A DNA stretch of 32,000 nucleotides from NCBI GenBank assembly GCA_000331975.1, contig CP003263.1, positions 150,001 through 182,000 of the forward strand. Direction: 5' to 3'. Positions 4,146-25,568 of the stretch are shown here, piece by piece. How positions within the stretch are numbered: the first letter of the stretch is position 1; each line of letters starts with the position of its first letter. The translations under genes and the position numbers were made by a program. Below the pieces are notes generated by a model. The model made no database searches. It was given only the letters and a program-made list of their open reading frames with translations, and was not told the DNA's origin. This DNA comes from Candidatus Uzinura diaspidicola str. ASNER (lineage in GTDB: Bacteria > Bacteroidota > Bacteroidia > Flavobacteriales > Blattabacteriaceae).

Positions 4146-4574
4146 ATGCCTCTTGGTTCTATGAAAAAAAGAAAAAGAATTGGTCGTGGTCAAGGTTCAG
4201 GGAAAGGAGGGACCTCAACAAGAGGTCATAAAGGTGCTAAGTCTAGATCAGGGTTTTCCGATAAATTAGGTTTTGAAGGAGGACAATTACCTATTCAACG
4301 ACGAATTCCTAAATTTGGGTTTAAAAAAAACAAAAAATCATATTTTTGCATAAAAATAGATTTACTGCAATCTTATGTAAAGAATAGAATCTTATTCAGA
4401 GAAGTAACACCAGAAATTCTTAAAAAAGCAATCTATATATCAAAGCATGATTTTATTAAAATAATTGGATATTGCCTTCTTACAGAATCTTTAAAGGTTT
4501 CTGCTCATAAATTTAGTAAATCTTCTATTGAATCTATTAAAAGTGCAGGAGGCGAGGTAATTCACATTTTATGA
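4146..4574 (+). CDS. rplO: 50S ribosomal protein L15
   Basis: ...KKRKRIGRGQGSGKGGTSTRGHKGAKSRSG...GFEGGQLPIQRRIPKFGF... Confidence 0.95.
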   Translation: MPLGSMKKRKRIGRGQGSGKGGTSTRGHKGAKSRSGFSDKLGFEGGQLPIQRRIPKFGFKKNKKSYFCIKIDLLQSYVKNRILFREVTPEILKKAIYISKHDFIKIIGYCLLTESLKVSAHKFSKSSIESIKSAGGEVIHIL

Positions 4575-5503
4575 GAAGACGGATAGAGGAAAATCTATTG
4601 AAGAAAAACTAATTATGTTTTATTTTTTATTGTTAATAGTTTGGCAACTTACATTCCCTCTGCTGGAGTATCTTTTAAGTAGATAATAAATCAAAGTACT
4701 AATTTTTAGTAATGCCTCTATTACTTTAGTAATTATGCCTTATATTTCTTCATCTATTTTTATACAGTTTATAAGTTTTGCGTTTACATTTTTATCTATA
4801 GTGAATAGAGAAATAAAGTATTTTAATCGTTGCCAAACTATAGTAAAATGCTTACTTCAATCTCCTGTTTACCTTATTGCATTGACTTCTAAATTTTTAC
4901 CTCTATATGCCTAAAGCGTATATTTTAGATTTAAGTGATTCTAAAACAAAAGCTTTTTTTTTTAATTTGTATGCCTTATAGGCACTATAGGCACTTTATG
5001 CACTTTATGCACTTTATTTTGTTTGTGGATTGGAGAAAAAATAACAGATAAAGGGATATATAATGGTATTTATTATTATGACAGCTATTATAGCACGTTT
5101 TCCTGAAAAAATTGTAATGGAAGTTAGTAATAGTTTAGAAGTAGGTGATAGGTTTATTCTTTTGTAGAAATTCTTTCTTTTACACTGTATATCATACAAA
5201 TAAAGTTCGTTTACAATATATAAGCTATATTAAGACTAATGATGATATCAATAAGGTCAGTGAATATTAAAAATTACAGCACTCAGGAGAGTGAGGTAAT
5301 TAGATTTTCAGAAGCAATTATGTTACTTAATAATATCAGTAATGATAAATTTCTAAATGGAAAAGATAGTGAAATTGTTTCTAAAAGAACTTTTCCAGGG
5401 GCTATTTTATTAGCCAATATGCTATCCATTTTTTGATGGAGGATCTTCGCTTTTAATTATTGTTGGGGTAATTTTAGATACATTACAACATAATCATACA
5501 TAA
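4571..5503 (+). pseudogene. secY: secY (preprotein translocase subunit SecY) pseudogene: fragmented, multi-frame, about 400 bp shorter than an intact gene
   Basis: It occupies the canonical slot between rplO and infA, and its ATG at 4571 overlaps the rplO stop. Recognisable SecY pieces appear in different frames. 4690-4911 reads ..ITLVIMPYISSSIFIQFIS (GIMPYIsASI.QL motif). 4966-5103 reads ..LWIGEKITDKGIYNGI (WLGE.IT.KGIGNG). 5066-5164 reads VFIIMTAIIARFPEKI. 5239-5433 reads ..RTFPGAILLANMLSIF. 5435-5500 reads DGGSSLLIIVGVILDTLQ (GGTSLLI.VGV.LDT..Q). The pieces are interrupted by TAA, TAG and TGA stops. Confidence 0.88.
4977..5012 (+). repeat. 9-bp tandem repeat, 4 units (TATAGGCAC x2, TTTATGCAC x2), inside the secY remnant
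   Basis: Read directly: tataggcac tataggcac tttatgcac tttatgcac. The repeat is in phase with the local SecY-like frame and encodes (IGT)2(LCT)2 just upstream of LWIGEKITDKG. Confidence 0.85.
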
Positions 5504-5505
5504 TT

Positions 5506-5721
5506 ATGATGAAAAAAAAATTCATAGAAAAAGATGCTGAAATAATTGAGGCATTACCTAATGCCATGTTTCGTGCTAAGTTAGATAGCGGTCATGTTAT
5601 TAAGGTTCATATTTCAGGAAAAATTCGTAAGAATTACATTAAAATCCTTCCAGGAGACAAAGTTAGGACGGAAATTTCCCCATACGATCTTTCTCAAGGT
5701 AGAATAGTTTATAGATATTAA
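5506..5721 (+). CDS. infA: translation initiation factor IF-1
   Basis: ...[65 protein letters not shown]. The start may be 5506 or 5509. Confidence 0.96.
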
Positions 5722-6257: not shown

Positions 6258-6638
6258 ATGGCAAAAACAACTGTAAAAAAACCAAAAGTAGAAGTTGAGA
6301 CTATAGGTAATGCTTATGTAGGATCTACTTTTAATAATATTATTATTACGTTAACTAACAAAAAAGGTGATGTAATATCTTCTTGTTCTTCTGGGCAAAT
6401 GGGGTTTAAAGGCTCAAAAAAAAATACACCGTTTGCAGCACAACGTGTTGCAGAAACAGTTGCAGAAAAAGGTTTTAATTCTGGTATTAGAAAAGTATAT
6501 GTTATTGTTAATGGTCCAGGTCTTGGAAGAGAATCAGCTATTCGTTCTCTAAATAAATTTATTTCTGTTATTAGTATTACCGATTGTACACCTTTTCCTC
6601 ATAATGGTTGTCGTACTCCTAAAAAGCGAAGATCCTAA
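6258..6638 (+). CDS. rpsK: 30S ribosomal protein S11
   Basis: ...[46 protein letters not shown]...[19 protein letters not shown]. Confidence 0.96.
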
Positions 6639-6654
6639 TCTTATAAGATAACAT

Positions 6655-7254
6655 ATGGCAAGATATATAGGGCCAAAGACAAAAATTGCACGAAGGTATA
6701 ATGAGCCTATTTTTGGAGAAAATAAATTCACTCATAAAAAGCAATATAAAAGGGTTTATAGGGGAAAAAGATTTAAAAAAAATGACTATATTAGCCAGCT
6801 CTTTGAAAAACAGAAGTTAAAATATATTTATGGAATTTTAGAACGTCAGTGCAGAAAAATATTTAAAAGAGCTTCTAGTATTAAAGGTAATACGGGAGAT
6901 ATTTTTCTACAGTTATTAGAAAGACGTCTTGATAATGTAATATATCGACTAGGGATTTCTACTTCTCGTTCTGGAGCTAGACAATTGGTATGTCATGGAC
7001 ATATAAAAGTAAATGCTCATATAGTAAATATTCCTTCTTACTATCTAAAACCTGGAGATATCATAGAAATTGCTGAAAAATCTAAGAGTCATAATGCTAT
7101 CAAGCAGGCTTTAAGTTCTATTAAAGTTCCAATTGTAAGTTGGTTATCGTGGAATAAAGAGAAAATGCTTGGAACTTTTCAACATCTCCCTAATAGAAAT
7201 AATATTCCTGAAAATATTAATGATCAGTTGATAGTTGAATGGTATTCAAAGTAA
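6655..7254 (+). CDS. rpsD: 30S ribosomal protein S4
   Basis: MARYIGPKTKIARRYNEPIFG...LERRLDNVIYRLGISTSRSGARQLVCHGHIKVN. Confidence 0.96.
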   Translation: MARYIGPKTKIARRYNEPIFGENKFTHKKQYKRVYRGKRFKKNDYISQLFEKQKLKYIYGILERQCRKIFKRASSIKGNTGDIFLQLLERRLDNVIYRLGISTSRSGARQLVCHGHIKVNAHIVNIPSYYLKPGDIIEIAEKSKSHNAIKQALSSIKVPIVSWLSWNKEKMLGTFQHLPNRNNIPENINDQLIVEWYSK

Positions 7255-7260
7255 AATAAT

Positions 7261-8226
7261 ATGTCAATTTTTAATGTGATACAACCAGACCAAGTAATAA
7301 TAAAAAGTGTTACAGATTATGACGGTATTTTCGAATTCAGTCCATTAGAACCTGGATTTGGAATTACTCTAGGGAATTCTTTAAGACGTGTGCTTCTTTC
7401 TTCTCTAGAAGGCTTTGCAATCACTTCTATTAAAATAGAAGGAGTAGAGCATGAATTTACTACAATAAAAGGAGTGGTAGAGGATGTTACAGACATAGTT
7501 CTTAACTGTAAAAAAATACGATTTAAAAAAAAAGTGGAAGGTATTCAAAATGAAGTAGTACATGTTTCTATAAAAGAAAAAGAGAAGATTATTGCAGGAG
7601 ACTTTGGTAGGTTTCTTTCTGGATTTCAAATCTTGAATAAGGAATTAGTTATTTGTAATAAAGAGAAATCAACTCCTTTTAATATTACTTTTGTAATTGA
7701 ACGTGGTAAAGGATATAAGCCTGCTGAAGAAAACAAAGATATCGTCCAGATAGGAGCGATAGCTATAGATGCAATATACACTCCTATAAAAAATGTACAG
7801 TACAAAGTAGAAAATTATCGTGTAGAACAGATAACTTTTTATGATAAATTAATATTAGAAATTAAAACTGATGGCTCTATACATCCTAGAGATGCGCTTA
7901 CAAATGCTGCAATTATTTTAATTAAGCATTTGAAAATATTTAAAAATGAGCGATTTATGTCTTTCGATGTAGATGAAAAAAATAATAATGAATATTATTA
8001 TGAAAATAATTTCCCTATATTAGGTTCTTATCTCTCTGATTTATACTTATCAATAATGGCAAAAAATTGTTTGAAATCATATAAAATGATTACTTTAGGT
8101 AAATTGGTTAGTAAACAAGAAAATGATCTTAAAAAAGTAAAGCACTTCTGTATAAAAACTATGGTAGCTATGAATGCTTTTTTAACTGCCCAAAAAATCT
8201 ATTTTGGTTTAGACATTTCCAAATAG
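7261..8226 (+). CDS. rpoA: DNA-directed RNA polymerase subunit alpha
   Basis: 321 aa. The N-terminal domain reads ...FEFSPLEPGFGITLGNSLRRVLLSSLEGFAITSIKIEGVEHEF. The C-terminal domain is recognisable (..AKNCLKS..) but divergent. It sits between rpsD and rplQ. Confidence 0.95.
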   Translation: MSIFNVIQPDQVIIKSVTDYDGIFEFSPLEPGFGITLGNSLRRVLLSSLEGFAITSIKIEGVEHEFTTIKGVVEDVTDIVLNCKKIRFKKKVEGIQNEVVHVSIKEKEKIIAGDFGRFLSGFQILNKELVICNKEKSTPFNITFVIERGKGYKPAEENKDIVQIGAIAIDAIYTPIKNVQYKVENYRVEQITFYDKLILEIKTDGSIHPRDALTNAAIILIKHLKIFKNERFMSFDVDEKNNNEYYYENNFPILGSYLSDLYLSIMAKNCLKSYKMITLGKLVSKQENDLKKVKHFCIKTMVAMNAFLTAQKIYFGLDISK

Positions 8227-8250
8227 ACATTAGAAAAAAATTACTACTTA

Positions 8251-8610
8251 ATGAGACATAAAAAAAAAATAAATCATCTTGGAAGAAAGGTAGGACATAG
8301 AAAGAATCTGATTGCTAATATGGCTTGTTCTCTTATTACTAATAAGTCTAATAGTATTAATACGACTCTGTCGAAAGCAAAGGAGCTTCGTAAGTTCATA
8401 GAACCACTCTTTACAATAAGTAAAAATAATAATACACATTCTCATAGAATACTATTTTCCTATCTTAAAAGTAAGTTTGCTATTTATCACTTATTTAAGA
8501 ATATTACCCCTAAAATTATAGAAAGGTATGGGGGATATACAAGAATAATAAAAATAGGGTCTAGGTTAGGTGATGGCGCAAAAACCGCTATAATAGAACT
8601 TGTAGTATAA
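8251..8610 (+). CDS. rplQ: 50S ribosomal protein L17
   Basis: [29 protein letters not shown]...[25 protein letters not shown]. Confidence 0.95.
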
Positions 8611-8614
8611 AATA

Positions 8615-9913
8615 ATGAGTTTCATAAAAAAAATTTATGCAAGACAAATTTTTGATTCTAGAGGAAATCCTACGATCGAGGTTGATGTAGTTACTACAGA
8701 AGGAGTGATAGGAAGTTCTTCTGTACCCTCTGGAGCCTCTAGAGGAAAATATGAAGCTGTTGAACTTCGTGATAACGGTATGGATTATTTTGGTAAAGGT
8801 GTAATAAAAGCTATAGGTTATATTAATGGCATATTGTGCAATGAACTTGTTGGAACTTCTGTTTTTAAACAGAATTTTATAGATCAATATCTTATTCAGA
8901 AAGATGATACTCCTAATAAAAACAAATTAGGATCCAACGCATTATTAGGAGTTTCTTTAGCGATCGCTAAAGCTGCTTCTAATACTATGGGAGTACCACT
9001 CTATAAATATTTAGGAGGAATAAATGCTTCTATTTTACCTGTCCCAATGATTAATATTATTAATGGAGGTATGCATTCTTATTCTCCCATCTCTTTTCAA
9101 GAATTTATGATCGTTCCTATAAAATTTAATAGTTTTTCTATGGCGCTTAAAGCTGGCATTGAGATTTTTCAGCAACTTAAAAATATTTTACAAAAAAGAA
9201 AATTAAGTACATCTGTAGGCGATGAAGGCGGATTTGCACCTAACTTTAAAAGCATTGAAGATGTTCTGGATACAATCGTTCAAGCCATTGAAGAAACTGG
9301 CTATAAGTTAAAAGAACAAATAATGTTAGCATTAGATTGCGCTGCGTCTGAATTTTATAAAGAAGGATTATATGACTATACTATTTTTGAAGGAATTCGT
9401 GGTTCTAAATTAACTACGGAACAACAAGTAGAATATCTAGCAAACTTATGCTATAGATATCCTATTCAATCTATCGAAGATGGGATGGATCAAAATGATT
9501 GGGTCGGCTGGAAAAAGCTCACAAATAAAATAGGATCAAAAGTGCAATTGGTAGGTGACGATCTTTTTGTCACAAATACAAAATTCCTTGAAAAAGGAAT
9601 TTCAGAAGGTATAGCTAATTCTATTTTAGTAAAAGTAAATCAAATTGGTACACTTACAGAAACCATGAAAACTATTAATAAAGCACAGGACGCTGGTTAT
9701 ACCACTGTAATATCACATCGATCAGGGGAAACAGAAGATCATATTATTTCAGATTTATCAGTAGCATTTAATACAGGACAAATAAAAACTGGCTCAGTTT
9801 CTCGCTCAGATAGAATGGCAAAATATAATCAACTACTACGTATAGAAGAAAAACTTGGAAAGTTTTCATCTTTTCCTCAATGGAAAACTTTCAGAGGGAG
9901 AGTAAACAAGTAG
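8615..9913 (+). CDS. eno: enolase (phosphopyruvate hydratase)
   Basis: 432 aa: ...[19 protein letters not shown]...[16 protein letters not shown]...[18 protein letters not shown]...[25 protein letters not shown]. Confidence 0.97.
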
Positions 9914-12593: not shown

Positions 12594-14335
12594 AAACGAC
12601 GTTAGCCATCTTTAGACTTATTGTAATGAGGGCGATTGCTTCTATATATATAGAAGGTATAACTTCAAATATTGAACTTAAAACCACTAAAAAAGAATTT
12701 CGTGGTCATATTACATTAGTGCTTTTTCCATTAGTAAAAATTATTAAAAAACCTCTTAAACAAATAGGGAAGGAAATAGGAGAGTATGTGAAAAAACACC
12801 TTATTATCGTTCATTCCTTTCATTTACTAAATGGGTTTTTGAATTTCGAGTGTTCTGAGGAATATTATTTTAAACTTTTAAAGAAGATATCTAAAGAAAT
12901 TTTGTTCTTAAAATCTTCAGAAGAAGATTCTTTAATGATAGAATATTCCTCTCCTAATACTAACAAACCTTTACATTTAGGACATATTCGTAATCATCTA
13001 TTAGGGAATTCTATATCTGAAATCTTTAAGGCTTTTGGTCATAATGTAATAAAAATACAAATTATTAATGATAGAGGAATTCATATTTGTAAATCTATGT
13101 TGGCATGGAAAAAGTTCTCTTCTGGAGAAACTCCAGAAATTACTTTTAAAGGTGACCATTTAATAGGTAAGTATTATGTAGCATTTGAAAAGGCTTATAA
13201 AAAGGAGGTAGAAGATTTATGTGCGAAAGGCTATGAAAAGGAATTAGCAGAAAAACAAGCGCCTATTATGCAAGAAGTTAGAAAACTATTGCTTCTTTGG
13301 GAAAAAAGAAATGTAAAAACATGGTATCATTGGAGAAATATGAATTCATGGGCTTATGAAGGTATTGAACAAACTTATTGTAGTTTGGGAATTTATTTTG
13401 ATGATACTCAGTATGAAAGTAAAACCTATTTACTAGGTAAAAGTATCATTGAAGATGGTCTTAAAAAGGGCGTTTTCTATAAAAAAGAGGACGGATCAGT
13501 TTGGGTTGATTTTACTAATGTAGGTTTAGACGAAAAGTTATTATTGCGCTCTGATGGAACATCTGTATATATTACTCAAGATTTAGGTACTGCAGTTGAG
13601 CGTTTCGAACTATATTCAATAAAATCGTTGATTTATATTGTTGGAGAGGAACAAGAGTATCATTTTAAGGTTCTTTTTCTCATTCTTAAATATATGAGAT
13701 ATGCTTGGGCTGATAGACTTTTTCATCTTTCTTATGGATTGGTTCAATTATTATCCGGTAAAATGAAATCTAGAGAAGGAATTATTATAGATGCAGATAA
13801 TTTAATAGATGAAATGCATAAGCTAGCACAATTTTTAACGTATCAAAAGGAAAATACTCTAGGTATTGGAGCTTTGAAATACTTTTTACTTAAAATAGAT
13901 ACTAAAAAACGTATTTTATATCATACTAAATCTTCTATAGATTTTAATGGTAACACTGGTCCATATATTCAATATACTAATGCGAGAATTAGCTCATTAT
14001 ACAGAAAAGCATTTACTAAAATGTACTGGAGAAATAGTATGATAAGGTATTACAGATATTCTATTATAGGAAGATATGAAAAGTATCTGCTAAAATACAT
14101 GGAGCAATATACAGAAGCTCTACTTTTAGCTAAGAAATGCCTTATTCCATCTATAATTGCGAATTACGCTTATAATTTGTCTAAAACTTTTAATGATTTT
14201 TATCAAAATGTTTGTATTATAAATATTAAAAATAAGTATGATTTTGTTTTTCGTCTTTTTCTTTCTAAGAAATGTGGAAATTGTTTAAAAAAAACTATGA
14301 ATCTTTTAGGCATAGAAATGCCAGAATATGTATAA
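12590..14335 (+). CDS. argS: arginine--tRNA ligase
   Basis: 581 aa. SSPNTNKPLHLGHIRNHLLG is the HIGH region and GKMKSREG is the class I loop. The C-terminal anticodon-binding region reads ...PYIQYTNARISS... Confidence 0.94.
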   Translation: MKTTLAIFRLIVMRAIASIYIEGITSNIELKTTKKEFRGHITLVLFPLVKIIKKPLKQIGKEIGEYVKKHLIIVHSFHLLNGFLNFECSEEYYFKLLKKISKEILFLKSSEEDSLMIEYSSPNTNKPLHLGHIRNHLLGNSISEIFKAFGHNVIKIQIINDRGIHICKSMLAWKKFSSGETPEITFKGDHLIGKYYVAFEKAYKKEVEDLCAKGYEKELAEKQAPIMQEVRKLLLLWEKRNVKTWYHWRNMNSWAYEGIEQTYCSLGIYFDDTQYESKTYLLGKSIIEDGLKKGVFYKKEDGSVWVDFTNVGLDEKLLLRSDGTSVYITQDLGTAVERFELYSIKSLIYIVGEEQEYHFKVLFLILKYMRYAWADRLFHLSYGLVQLLSGKMKSREGIIIDADNLIDEMHKLAQFLTYQKENTLGIGALKYFLLKIDTKKRILYHTKSSIDFNGNTGPYIQYTNARISSLYRKAFTKMYWRNSMIRYYRYSIIGRYEKYLLKYMEQYTEALLLAKKCLIPSIIANYAYNLSKTFNDFYQNVCIINIKNKYDFVFRLFLSKKCGNCLKKTMNLLGIEMPEYV

Positions 14336-14337
14336 TT

Positions 14338-16251
14338 ATGATTTGTATTAAATTTTATGATGGTTTCCTGAAGGATTATCCTTCAGGTATTACTCCTATA
14401 GAGATAGCACTAGATATGAACGAGAAGAAAGCTAGAGAGGTGTTATCTGCATCAATAAACGGTCATCAAGTAGAACTTTCAACTCCTATTACAAAAATAA
14501 ATATACAAATAGTTTTTTATTCTTGGGAAAATACACTTGGTAAAAAAGCTTTTTGGCATTCTTCTATCCATTTATTAGGACAAACTCTTCTGCAAATTCA
14601 TCCACAAGCTAAACTAACAATAGGAAATCCTATTGAAAATGGGTTTTATTATGATGTAGATTTAGTAGATGGTCCACAACAAAACTTTTCTTCGAATCTA
14701 GAAGAGCGTATGCTTGAAAATGCTAGAAAAAATTCTATTTTTGAACTATACTCTATTTATAAAGCTAAATCACTTGATTATTATAAGGAAAATCTTTATA
14801 AGATAGATATAATTAAAAATTTACAAGAAGGGGACACTACTTTTTGTAGTAATGATGATTTTGTTGACCTATGTAGAGGTACGCATATTTTTAGTTCTGG
14901 TAAAATTAAATACGTTAAAATCTTAAACTCCTCTGGTGTTTACTGGCATAGCGATGAGAAAAACCAACAGCTTACTAGAGTATATGGTATCTCTTTCCCT
15001 AATGAAAAACATATGAACGAATATTTACTTAAATTTGAAGAAGCAAAAAAACGTGATCATCGTAAATTAGGTAAAGAGCTAGATTTGTTCAATTTTTCGG
15101 ATAATGTAGGTGCAGGATTACCTCTTTGGAAGACCAAAGGTACTGTTTTGAGGCGGTCTTTAGAAGATTTTTTAATGCGAGCCCAGAAAAAATATGGTTA
15201 TGAAATGGTAGTCACACCCCATATCGGCAACAAAAAACTTTATAAGATTTCAGGGCATATTGATAAATATGAAAATGATAGTTTTCTAACGAGATTCAGC
15301 CATCATTTTGGGGAGGAGATTTTGTTAAAGTCAATGAACTGCCCTCATCATTGCGAACTTTTTAAGTCACAATCATGGTCTTATAGAGATTTACCTAAAC
15401 GGTTTGCAGAGTTTGGCAATGTATATCGTTACGAACAAAGTGGTGAATTACATGGTCTAACCAGAACAAGAGGTTTCACTCAAGATGACGCTCATATTTT
15501 TTGTACTACTGATCAATTGGTAGATGAGTTTCATCGAGTGATTGATTTGGTATTGTATATTTTAAAATCTCTTGGATTTGAACAGTATACTATACAAATC
15601 TCTCTTAGAGATTTGAAGATTATGAATAAATATATTGGAAAAGAGCAAAACTGGAAAAAAGCAGAGGAAGATATTATAGAAGCAGTCTGCAATAAAAACT
15701 TACCAACAAAAATAATTCATGGTGAGGCAGCTTTTTATGGTCCTAAATTAGATTTCTTGATTCAAGACTCATTGAAAAGAAACTGGCAGTTAGGTACGAT
15801 TCAAATAGACTATAGTTTGCCAGAAAGATTTGATTTACAGTATCAAGGTCCTGATAATCTCTTATATAGACCAGTAATAATTCATAGAGCTCCTTTTGGG
15901 TCTCTAGAACGTTTTATTGCTCTCTTAATAGAGCACACTGGTGGTAATTTTCCTTTTTGGCTCTCTCCTATTCAGGTAATACTTATTCCAATAAGTGAAA
16001 AATATATTTTTTATGCAGAAAAAATTTTACACTTACTTTATAAGTATGGAATTCGCTCAAATATTGATTTACGTAGTGAAAAAACTGGTAAAAAAATAAG
16101 AGATGCGGAAATTAATAAGATTCCTTTTATGGCTATTGTAGGAGAAAAAGAAATGTATGATGGTACAATCTCAATCAGAGCACATACTATAGGAAATATG
16201 GGAAAATTTACTTTTGAAGCTTTCTTGGAATTATTATTTAATGAAGCATAA
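14338..16251 (+). CDS. thrS: threonine--tRNA ligase
   Basis: The ATG at 14338 gives MICIKFYDGFLKDYPSGITPIEIA.. (TGS domain). Further on: ...KKAFWHSSIHLLGQ...NGFYYDVD..., and the class II core ...RDHRKLGKELDLF...GFTQDDAHIFC... The ORF-track start at 14272 lies inside argS. Confidence 0.95.
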   Translation: MICIKFYDGFLKDYPSGITPIEIALDMNEKKAREVLSASINGHQVELSTPITKINIQIVFYSWENTLGKKAFWHSSIHLLGQTLLQIHPQAKLTIGNPIENGFYYDVDLVDGPQQNFSSNLEERMLENARKNSIFELYSIYKAKSLDYYKENLYKIDIIKNLQEGDTTFCSNDDFVDLCRGTHIFSSGKIKYVKILNSSGVYWHSDEKNQQLTRVYGISFPNEKHMNEYLLKFEEAKKRDHRKLGKELDLFNFSDNVGAGLPLWKTKGTVLRRSLEDFLMRAQKKYGYEMVVTPHIGNKKLYKISGHIDKYENDSFLTRFSHHFGEEILLKSMNCPHHCELFKSQSWSYRDLPKRFAEFGNVYRYEQSGELHGLTRTRGFTQDDAHIFCTTDQLVDEFHRVIDLVLYILKSLGFEQYTIQISLRDLKIMNKYIGKEQNWKKAEEDIIEAVCNKNLPTKIIHGEAAFYGPKLDFLIQDSLKRNWQLGTIQIDYSLPERFDLQYQGPDNLLYRPVIIHRAPFGSLERFIALLIEHTGGNFPFWLSPIQVILIPISEKYIFYAEKILHLLYKYGIRSNIDLRSEKTGKKIRDAEINKIPFMAIVGEKEMYDGTISIRAHTIGNMGKFTFEAFLELLFNEA

Positions 16252-21481: not shown

Positions 21482-22249
21482 ATGTTCCATCAACAAGATA
21501 TTAGCGTAGAAGAAAAACTTAGAACATTGTATGATTTACAACTTATAGATTCTCTTGTAGACGAGATAAGATCTATTATAGATAGTATACCACTACAAGT
21601 AAAGGCCATTGAAAATGAAGTAGAAAATATACAAAAAAAATATAAAGAAATTAGAGAAGAAATAAAGGAATATGATAAAGCTATACAACAGGAGAAAGAT
21701 CTGATTAAAGAGTATGAAATATTTATAAAGAAATATGCTTCTAAGCAATATAAGGTTCGTAACAATATTGAATCACTAGATAAAGAAATTGAATTTAAAG
21801 AACTAGAAATAGAACTTTGCCATAAAAAATGGAAAAAAATTAAATCTAAGAAAGATAAAAAAAAGAATTTTTACGCAAATTTTGCCGCTCTTTATGAGAA
21901 GAAGAAAGAATATTTATCAAATAAGAAAAAAGAATTTGAGAAAATATTAGAAAAACAGGAGAAAAAGAAGAATTTTTTGCTAAAAAAAGCTTACATCTTC
22001 TCTAAGAGAATTGAACCACGTTTATTACAAATATATAGTCGCATAAGATCGAGAACAAAATTAGCTGTTGTTCCAATAAAAAAAGGAGCTCCTATCGGCT
22101 CTTTTTTTACCATCCCTATTCAAGTATGCCTAGATATTGCTCAACGTAATATGATAGTAATGGATGAGCATAGCGGAAGAATTTTAATAGATCCAGTATT
22201 AGCGGAAGAAGAATCTATTAAAATTTATACTAATTATAAAACAAAATGA
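21482..22249 (+). CDS. COG1579-type coiled-coil protein (annotated in other bacteria as 'zinc ribbon domain' protein); no Cys at the ribbon positions
   Basis: N-terminus ..EEKLRTLYDLQLIDSLVDEIR.., followed by a long K/E-rich coiled coil. C-terminus ..KKGAPIGSFFTIPIQ...MDEHSGRILID.. This matches my recollection of the family architecture. Confidence 0.7.
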   Translation: MFHQQDISVEEKLRTLYDLQLIDSLVDEIRSIIDSIPLQVKAIENEVENIQKKYKEIREEIKEYDKAIQQEKDLIKEYEIFIKKYASKQYKVRNNIESLDKEIEFKELEIELCHKKWKKIKSKKDKKKNFYANFAALYEKKKEYLSNKKKEFEKILEKQEKKKNFLLKKAYIFSKRIEPRLLQIYSRIRSRTKLAVVPIKKGAPIGSFFTIPIQVCLDIAQRNMIVMDEHSGRILIDPVLAEEESIKIYTNYKTK

Positions 22250-24847: not shown

Positions 24848-25013
24848 TATTATGTACAACAAATAGGCATCGTATTTACCTACAAACTCCTAAAACCCGC
24901 GTAATTTAACTTACCCAATTTTATACTAATAGTTCTCATGTGGTTGAATTTAATAAAGGAGCAATATCTATAAGACATCACATTGACCTATAATATCTAC
25001 CAGCTTATAAAAG

Positions 25014-25088
25014 TAGACATTACCGGGCTCGAACCAGTGACCTCTATCCTGTCAAGATAGTGCTCTAAACCAACTTAGCTAAATGTCT
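25014..25088 (-). tRNA. tRNA-Val (anticodon GAC), no encoded 3' CCA
   Basis: The reverse complement folds by hand into a cloverleaf. Acceptor AGACATT/AATGTCT is perfect. The anticodon stem is CTATC/GATAG with loop TTGACAG. The T arm is ACTGG-TTCGAGC-CCGGT. Confidence 0.88.
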
Positions 25089-25097
25089 TTTATCTAG

Positions 25098-25171
25098 TGA
25101 TCACGGCTGGAGTCGAACCAGCACCCTTCTGATTAGAAGTCAAATGCTCTATCCAACTAAGCTACGCGACC
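25098..25171 (-). tRNA. tRNA-Arg (anticodon UCU), no encoded 3' CCA
   Basis: Reverse complement: GGTCGCG TA GCTTAGTTGGATAGAGC A TTTGA CTTCTAA TCAGA AGGGT GCTGG TTCGACT CCAGC CGTGATC A. The anticodon loop is CTTCTAA. Confidence 0.9.
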
Positions 25172-25181
25172 TTTTTTTTTG

Positions 25182-25256
25182 TCGGGGTGGCAGGATTTGA
25201 ACCTACGATTTCCTGGCCCCAAACCAGGCGCGTTTACCAAACTACGCTACACCCCG
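25182..25256 (-). tRNA. tRNA-Pro (anticodon UGG), no encoded 3' CCA
   Basis: Reverse complement: CGGGGTG TA GCGTAGTTTGGTAAACGC G CCTGG TTTGGGG CCAGG AAATC GTAGG TTCAAAT CCTGC CACCCCG A. The anticodon loop is TTTGGGG. Confidence 0.9.
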
Positions 25257-25568
25257 TATCTAACCTTCTTCTATTTTTCTGTTATTATTAGTATAATTTA
25301 AAATACATTTTGTCTATAAAAAAAAGAATATTATAGAGGCAGGGAATGTAGTATGAGATTGTTTTGGTAGATAGAAAATTTGTCATCGGTATTTATATTT
25401 CAGGCATGATTGGACTCAATGGTTGATGGGCAGACAGGAGAATATGATTTAAAAGAAAGTTATCTAGTTGATTAAAAATGGTGTAGAATAGAGCTATATT
25501 TAAATGAAGAGGAAAAATACTTATTAAAATGAACATGATAGATAATTATTTTTCTATACCTTTTCGTT

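Follow-up and report, generated by a model that had tools for sequence, protein, structure and literature searches.

Our analyses of a stretch of 32,000 nucleotides from Candidatus Uzinura diaspidicola ASNER (contig CP003263.1, positions 150,001 to 182,000; hereafter the window) indicate that the gap between rplO and infA, at positions 4575–5505 of the plus strand, is very probably a non-functional relic of secY that still occupies the standard rplO–secY–infA position. Uzinura diaspidicola ASNER lives as a flavobacterial symbiont in the armoured scale insect Aspidiotus nerii, and its genome comprises 263,431 bp. The gap is 931 bases long and is the largest non-coding stretch of the window. Its descent from secY was traced by profile searches, tblastn and nucleotide alignment. 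In twelve relatives of the same clade, the corresponding slot holds secY in states that range from intact to nearly erased; these loci, together with the outgroup L085, which comes from a symbiont further removed and has a normal SecY, are referred to below by their locus labels.

An earlier note on this DNA, made from the sequence alone, had described a fragmented and shortened secY pseudogene in its canonical slot with no open reading frame (ORF) longer than 65 codons, and the ORF list, the profile and tblastn all bear out this description. Every peptide that it quoted (MFYFLLLIVWQLTFPLLEY, ITLVIMPYISSSIFIQFIS, LWIGEKITDKGIYNGI, VFIIMTAIIARFPEKI, RTFPGAILLANMLSIF, DGGSSLLIIVGVILDTLQ) is present at the coordinates and in the frame that it gave. 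The longest ORF on the plus strand encodes 65 amino acids (5239–5436), and the longest on the minus strand encodes 61. The three forward frames, of about 310 codons each, contain 31, 15 and 29 stop codons, with TAA, TAG and TGA all represented, and the longest open run is 74 codons. The uninterrupted ORF of about 400–460 codons, encoding ten transmembrane helices, that characterizes a working SecY is thus lacking from the remnant.

Since single fragments remained below threshold with Pfam (two fragments matched PF00344 with 20.9 and 21.5 bits and E values of about 2e-4, where the gathering score is 32.2 bits), we built a clade-appropriate profile from 77 flavobacterial SecYs, which were obtained from 80 rplO-centred loci in genome collections. 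This profile revealed four collinear matches over the remnant, in two reading frames, covering 207 of the 447 profile positions, while the profile positions from about 1 to 68 and from about 220 to 367 found no match in the remnant. The remnant is homologous to the SecY family by virtue of the block at 4705–5073 and three weaker collinear pieces. A tblastn comparison with a flavobacterial SecY, which the earlier note had proposed, was performed with the Marixanthomonas protein and produced the same map as the profile, with collinear fragments in two frames. A six-frame profile scan of the whole window detected no other significant SecY-like stretch. The position is the canonical one, following rplO at the end of the spc operon, and is the same in 77 free-living Flavobacteriia, in L085, and in L087, L088 and L092. 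The remnant is collinear with the intact secY of these last three loci and carries disabling lesions, as befits a unitary pseudogene.

The ancestral start of the gene is still recognizable. As the earlier note had pointed out, the start ATG (4571) and the stop codon of rplO overlap as ATGA, and the intact secY genes of L087 and L092, which encode 427 amino acids each, open at the identical overlap. In the window, this start leads into 13 codons (MRRRIEENLLKKN) and then a TAA (4571–4612, plus strand), and the same TAA is found in the L084 remnant. The following piece, at 4615–4686, lies outside the frame of the start codon, is closed by TAATAA and corresponds to the region of the first transmembrane helix (TM1). 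It is not significant against the SecY profile, and its homology derives only from the nucleotide alignment to the TM1 of the intact relatives.

The best-preserved block spans 4705–5073 in the first frame and covers SecY residues from about 69 to 186, including the IMPYISSSI and WIGEKITDKG motifs, and is interrupted by in-frame stops. Its profile E value is 7e-19 for the region alone and 5e-17 in the six-frame scan of the 32-kb window, and its tblastn E value is 6e-17. The block includes a tandem-repeat expansion at 4970–5017, composed of 5.3 copies of the 9-base unit TATGCACTT (Tandem Repeats Finder score 59), which represents a 19-base insertion relative to the intact relatives at reference position 467. 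After GEKITDKG, a frameshift transfers the similarity to the second frame, in which 5054–5161 matches SecY residues from about 182 to 219 (hmmsearch independent E value (iE) 0.0012; also a tblastn high-scoring segment pair). The middle of the gene is strongly degraded: at 5162–5370, about 210 bases without a profile match stand in place of SecY residues from about 220 to 367, and three deletions (120, 48 and 44 bases) fall within this interval or just downstream of it. The first frame is resumed at 5371–5433 with SecY residues from about 368 to 390 (TFPGAILLA; hmmsearch iE 0.0013, also recovered by tblastn), and ends in TGA. Finally, the remnant of the C-terminal helix, GGSSLLIIVGVILDTLQ, occupies 5423–5505 in the shifted, second frame and reaches the start of infA. 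The corresponding profile match spans 5423–5515 and SecY residues 401–431, with an iE of 5.8e-07, and this C-terminal block is kept in nearly all of the relatives, including the remnants of about 300 bases in L002 and L091.

We mapped the lesions by nucleotide alignment to the secY genes of four intact or near-intact relatives. The remnant differs from them by 20 insertion or deletion (indel) events, 14 of which shift the frame; the events include deletions of 16, 38, 25, 15, 120, 48, 44 and 24 bases. In addition, point nonsense codons are present at codons 9, 39 and 415 of the reference frame. The net loss amounts to about 335 bases relative to the intact Uzinura-clade genes (1.23–1.28 kb) and to about 390 bp relative to a SecY of 440 codons, in good agreement with the loss of roughly 400 bp that had been estimated beforehand. 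Each dead secY copy also has repeat expansions of its own: the rplO–infA intervals of L084, L090 and L082 have gained inserts (44, 70 and 187 nt), which suggests that DNA free of constraint is readily altered by replication slippage in these genomes.

The pattern of substitution agrees with the loss of function. The ratio of nonsynonymous to synonymous divergence (dN/dS) was estimated by the Nei–Gojobori method with codon bootstraps, which replaced codon-position p-distances because the third positions are compressed by AT bias. For the 22 flanking genes, dN/dS is 0.15–0.20, with a synonymous divergence (dS) of 0.23–0.54 between lineages. Pairs of intact secY genes give a dN/dS of 0.39–0.54, with upper limits of at most 0.75; the intact copies are therefore under constraint, although it is about threefold weaker than in the neighbouring genes. 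Between the window and the L084 remnant, dN/dS is 1.01 (95% bootstrap interval 0.70–1.64), and the mark of purifying selection that a functional SecY would bear is absent from the remnant. Over the entire path to L084, if not longer, secY has thus evolved neutrally in the lineage of the window. A similar value, 0.97, was obtained between L090 and L082. Moreover, the intact SecYs of the Uzinura clade are unusually diverged. Of 189 positions with an invariance of 95% or more among the 77 free-living Flavobacteriia, they keep only 107–123, corresponding to a retention of 57–65% in L087, L088 and L092, whereas the SecY of L085 keeps 170. Given the loose constraint and the small number of invariant positions kept, SecY appears to be already under weak selection throughout the clade.

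The comparison with sister symbionts was another check that the earlier note had put forward. A protein search with uL15 returned about 25 clusters at 67–85% identity, nearly all of them from public read-set assemblies and metagenomes. Eleven rplO neighbourhoods were retrieved through this search, L002 was added from a genome collection, and L092 was found through its SecY. In trees built from the 22 flanking genes (about 3,850 codons), the window and its twelve relatives form a clade with 100% support on a long stem, and we refer to these 13 as the Uzinura-clade loci. In the same slot, secY is intact in three of them, interrupted by a single break in two, and degraded or deleted in the remaining eight.

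The intact genes encode 427 amino acids in L087 and in L092, and 408 amino acids, from a TTG start, in L088. In L083 (6439–7702) and L089 (6454–7736), a single frame break, located at or beside a poly-T run of 11 and 9 Ts, respectively, interrupts an otherwise open gene; these breaks may be lesions of very recent date, errors of assembly, or frameshifts that are rescued by transcriptional slippage. Three copies retain their full length with many lesions, namely those of L090 (389 of the 447 profile positions), L082 (301) and L084 (307). Two are shortened: the copy in the window (934 nt in this comparison, 207 profile positions) and that in L081 (935 nt, 320 profile positions). The copies in L091 (360 nt), L086 (383 nt) and L002 (312 nt) are nearly erased, although crumbs of secY sequence such as caatctcctgtttacct and ggaggaacttcgcttttaattatt remain in the L002 interval. 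Across the seven degraded relatives (L084, L091, L002, L081, L082, L090 and L086), between 0 and 389 of the 447 profile positions are left. The L081 remnant (6595–7520) is about as long as that of the window, yet in-frame deletions of 6–69 bases make up 10 of its 14 indel events, and its dN/dS of 0.52 against the intact copies does not exceed the values that these show between themselves. This suggests that L081 was inactivated late and separately.

The flanking-gene trees allow the age of the inactivation to be considered. The window groups with L091, L084 and L002 (group A, 100% support), and all four copies are degraded. L083, L088 and L089 form group B (99–100%), in which secY is intact or carries a single lesion, and L081, L082 and L090 form group C' (86–98%), in which it is degraded. 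L086, with an erased gene, and L087 and L092, with intact ones, fall outside these groups. The dS of the flanking genes is 0.35 between the window and L084 and 0.42–0.49 to the lineages outside group A; the split between the window and L084 goes back about three quarters of the way to the base of the Uzinura lineages sampled. The neutral evolution of the two remnants, together with the early TAA at reference codon 9 that they have in common, points to an inactivation before this split. Most likely, the gene was inactivated in the common ancestor of the window, L084, L091 and L002. The earlier proposal of an evolutionarily recent inactivation therefore stands only in part: other Uzinura lineages still have an intact gene, while the event itself appears to predate the divergence of the window and L084. 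Nor is the survival of recognizable motifs a sign of a fresh lesion, as had been supposed; rather, it follows from the small neutral divergence across the clade, of about 0.2–0.25 differences per site.

We lean towards separate secY losses in groups A and C', on the basis of sequence comparison. L090 and L082 have three 1-base frameshifts and two nonsense codons in common, while the alignment of the clade secY loci revealed no convincing frameshift common to groups A and C'. The dN/dS between A and C' remnants is 0.63–0.81, and several of its upper limits are below 1. Furthermore, group A adjoins the intact group B in the amino-acid and codon-position-1+2 trees, with neighbour-joining bootstraps of 75–80%. 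Taken together, the lack of a common frameshift, the A–C' dN/dS values and the grouping of A with B favour separate losses.

Several observations weigh against this interpretation. The all-site nucleotide tree does not recover the grouping of A with B, and the backbone is poorly resolved. The outgroup branch of L085 is long and the root is uncertain, and the addition of L092 brought no resolution. A few small features unite the window and L082: both lack the same 3 bases, both have Val in place of Gly in the GIMPY motif, and both have a TAA that is possibly misaligned. Furthermore, the upper confidence limits of the A–C' dN/dS values are near 1. Given this unstable backbone, we do not claim a firm number of secY losses. 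With somewhat better than even confidence, we propose that secY would have been lost repeatedly and independently across Uzinura, with at least two losses, one in group A and one in the lineage of L081, L082 and L090. L086 may represent a third loss, and L083 and L089 may be at the start of others, while the remaining lineages hold intact but fast-evolving copies.

The order of loss relative to eno, which lies downstream in the same neighbourhood, would also vary under this proposal. The eno gene is intact in the window (8615–9913), L083, L088, L089 and L092; only crumbs of it persist in L087 (10958–11152) and L091 (9966–10013), and no trace was detected in the same retrieved loci of L002, L081, L082, L084, L086 and L090. 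The window has thus kept eno and lost secY, whereas L087 has kept secY and lost eno, so that the lineages differ in the order in which genes were lost. The patchy loss of eno is a clear precedent for parallel loss at these loci.

We considered whether the gene might in fact be functional. A sequencing or assembly error, in a homopolymer or in the consensus, would leave secY truly intact, and it is true that some breaks in the remnant occur at A/T runs and that the single poly-T breaks of L083 and L089 are possibly errors. However, such an error is extremely improbable as the cause of 20 indels that include deletions of 38, 44, 48 and 120 bases, of point nonsense codons, and of the disappearance of about 150 codons from the middle of the gene, next to adjoining genes that are clean. 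In seven relatives that were assembled independently, the secY slot is as degraded as in the window or more so, and the state of the window is therefore not a sequencing artefact, as the earlier note had argued from the intact flanks. A working SecY could alternatively be produced by programmed frameshifting, transcriptional slippage, stop read-through or assembly from split subunits. In endosymbionts, single frameshifts can be rescued when slippage occurs at homopolymers, and the remnant still has the ancestral start codon and some of the motifs. We give this possibility virtually no credence, as the lesions lie in all frames and involve all three stop codons, no open run exceeds 74 codons, profile positions from about 1 to 68 and from 220 to 367 are unmatched, and dN/dS against L084 is about 1. 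Codon reassignment, a split gene and rescue by slippage were each rejected on account of the 14 frameshifting indels, the occurrence of all stop types and the missing middle, and the earlier statement that no codon reassignment rescues the gene holds. It is likewise very unlikely that the remnant is merely redundant with a second, intact secY elsewhere in the genome. The intact L087 SecY, searched against 5.8 billion proteins that include the ASNER proteome at NCBI, matched no ASNER protein; the only other clusters from the Uzinura clade were five (P0124–P0127 and the L083 fragment P0178), and the next-best matches, at 50% identity or less, came from other symbionts. Moreover, Sec has been scored as absent (PMC3971599), and the six-frame scan of the window revealed no further copy.

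A different possibility, which is compatible with a dead gene, is that the remnant or its 3' end has been kept for a non-coding role, such as a leader or spacing for infA. The last 60–80 bases, around GGSSLLIIVG, are the only block kept in almost every relative, even in the remnants of about 300 bases, and no lineage has removed the spacer entirely, the minimum being 312 bases. Nevertheless, on the plus strand of the remnant, scans that included a Bacteroidetes-type promoter pattern yielded neither promoters nor terminators beyond what chance would give, and L086 lacks most of the similarity to the 3' block. Retention beside the essential infA is in any case expected, since deletions that extend into infA are lethal. 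We consider a non-coding role improbable, and the good preservation of the 3' end is most simply explained by the danger that deletions there pose to infA.

We thus regard 4575–5505 as a dead secY, and its history may be envisaged as follows. The symbiont would first have lost the proteins that need the SecY channel, the likely cause in view of the published absence of the respiratory chain, ATP synthase and envelope synthesis, and SecY would thereby have become dispensable. A null mutation in secY would then have been fixed by drift, after which the deletion bias of bacteria would slowly have worn the gene away. Transcription of the ribosomal-protein operon probably still extends through the remnant, which would then be a spacer that is not translated. 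Hydrophobic segments of the kind that form membrane helices are lacking from all 38 proteins that the window encodes, and secA, secE, secG, yidC, ffh, ftsY, lepB and lspA are all absent from the 32-kb window. This account is limited in that the absence of secA, secE, yidC, ffh and ftsY from the genome is taken from the published inventory (PMC3971599), as the window represents 32 of 263 kb.

The loss of secY in ASNER is an ordinary gene loss that has already been reported and is now described at the sequence level. In the survey by Rosas-Perez et al. 2014 (PMC3971599, Table 3), Sec, the twin-arginine translocation (Tat) system, ATP synthase, NADH dehydrogenase and cytochrome c oxidase are absent in U. 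diaspidicola, the synthesis of fatty acids, phospholipids and peptidoglycan is also scored as absent, and seven pseudogenes are counted in the ASNER genome. That study concerned the same genome and recorded the absence of Sec, whereas the secY remnant, its lesion map and its age were not described there. More generally, McCutcheon et al. 2024 (PMC11020763) reported that Sec, the β-barrel assembly machinery (BAM) and ATP synthase are lost along with envelope synthesis in 'tipping-point' endosymbionts with genomes below about 400 kb, and Uzinura, at 263 kb, fits this pattern. The novelty and weight that the earlier note attached to the loss of the Sec channel core are therefore not sustained. 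While the analysis in PMC11020763 is a presence/absence matrix over distant taxa, the present loci capture the loss in progress within one shallow clade (dS 0.23–0.54).

Walczuchella, a symbiont of giant scale insects (PMC12188211, PMC3971599), resembles Uzinura in being a tiny flavobacterial symbiont with ongoing pseudogenization and the same rplO–secY–infA neighbourhood; however, it keeps secY, secA, secE and yidC, whereas the secY of Uzinura ASNER is dead. According to PMC8662606, mitochondria and other bacteria-derived compartments likewise gave up SecY, which we note as an analogy only. We found no comparison of several Uzinura genomes in the literature that was searched. The new part of our work is the series of intact, single-break, degraded and deleted secY genes across the 13 Uzinura-clade loci; this graded series may be unpublished, and it extends a known phenomenon.

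The surroundings of the remnant are in good order. Upstream, rplO (uL15; 4146–4574, plus strand) is an intact ORF whose product matches AGC66930.1 of ASNER exactly, and downstream, infA (IF-1; 5506–5721, plus strand) is an intact ORF with 86–93% identity to the infA of the Uzinura clade. The ribosomal-protein genes that flank the secY slot are intact. The ASNER accessions run consecutively from rplO (AGC66930) to rpoA (AGC66936), and thus leave no slot for a secY coding sequence. Exact matches to ASNER proteins were obtained for uL15, RpoA and ValS. The length of uL15 varies, with 142 amino acids in the window, 127 in L084 (6001–6384) and about 150 in free-living relatives, and the L002 rplO (8001–8366) has an internal deletion; uL15 is shrinking across the Uzinura clade.

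The window, with a GC content of about 27–30% throughout, encodes most of the S10/spc/alpha ribosomal-protein cluster, from rplP to rplQ. Downstream, the gene order is eno, valS, argS, thrS, infC, rpmI, rplT, def, ruvX, dapD, the gene of a CCA/HD enzyme and lipA, followed by an unannotated ORF of 255 amino acids, dnaB, rplS, lipB, three tRNAs, mnmE and thrCBA. The unannotated ORF (21482–22249, plus strand), between lipA and dnaB, is rich in Lys and Glu and has neither a Pfam match nor a hydrophobic segment. The listed thrS shares 64 bases with the end of argS (14272–14335), and the listed infC, with a TTG start, shares 38 bases with thrS (16214–16251); the true starts of thrS and infC are probably further downstream. 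Rfam and tRNA scans of the window detected only the three tRNAs, all far from the secY locus, and the tRNA cluster lies on the minus strand at 25013–25256. The top-scoring tandem repeat of the window, a 25-base unit in 2.2 copies (25497–25550), is located in the spacer between this cluster and mnmE.

For ASNER itself, our results add little beyond confirmation, as symbiont genomes that are shrinking routinely contain relics of pseudogenes. The wider clade is of greater interest. Recent reviews have left open how endosymbionts that are unable to insert membrane proteins keep their membranes working, and what goes first. With at least a dozen Uzinura-clade lineages in public assemblies, separated by about 0.2–0.5 synonymous substitutions per site, these symbionts constitute a tractable system. 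If the repeated loss of secY is true, sister lineages that have kept or lost the channel would allow a direct comparison of their membrane proteome, of host-supplied transporters and of the partner genes (secA, secE, yidC and those of the signal recognition particle), and the symbionts of armoured scale insects would provide a natural time series of how a bacterium gives up its own membrane-protein insertion.

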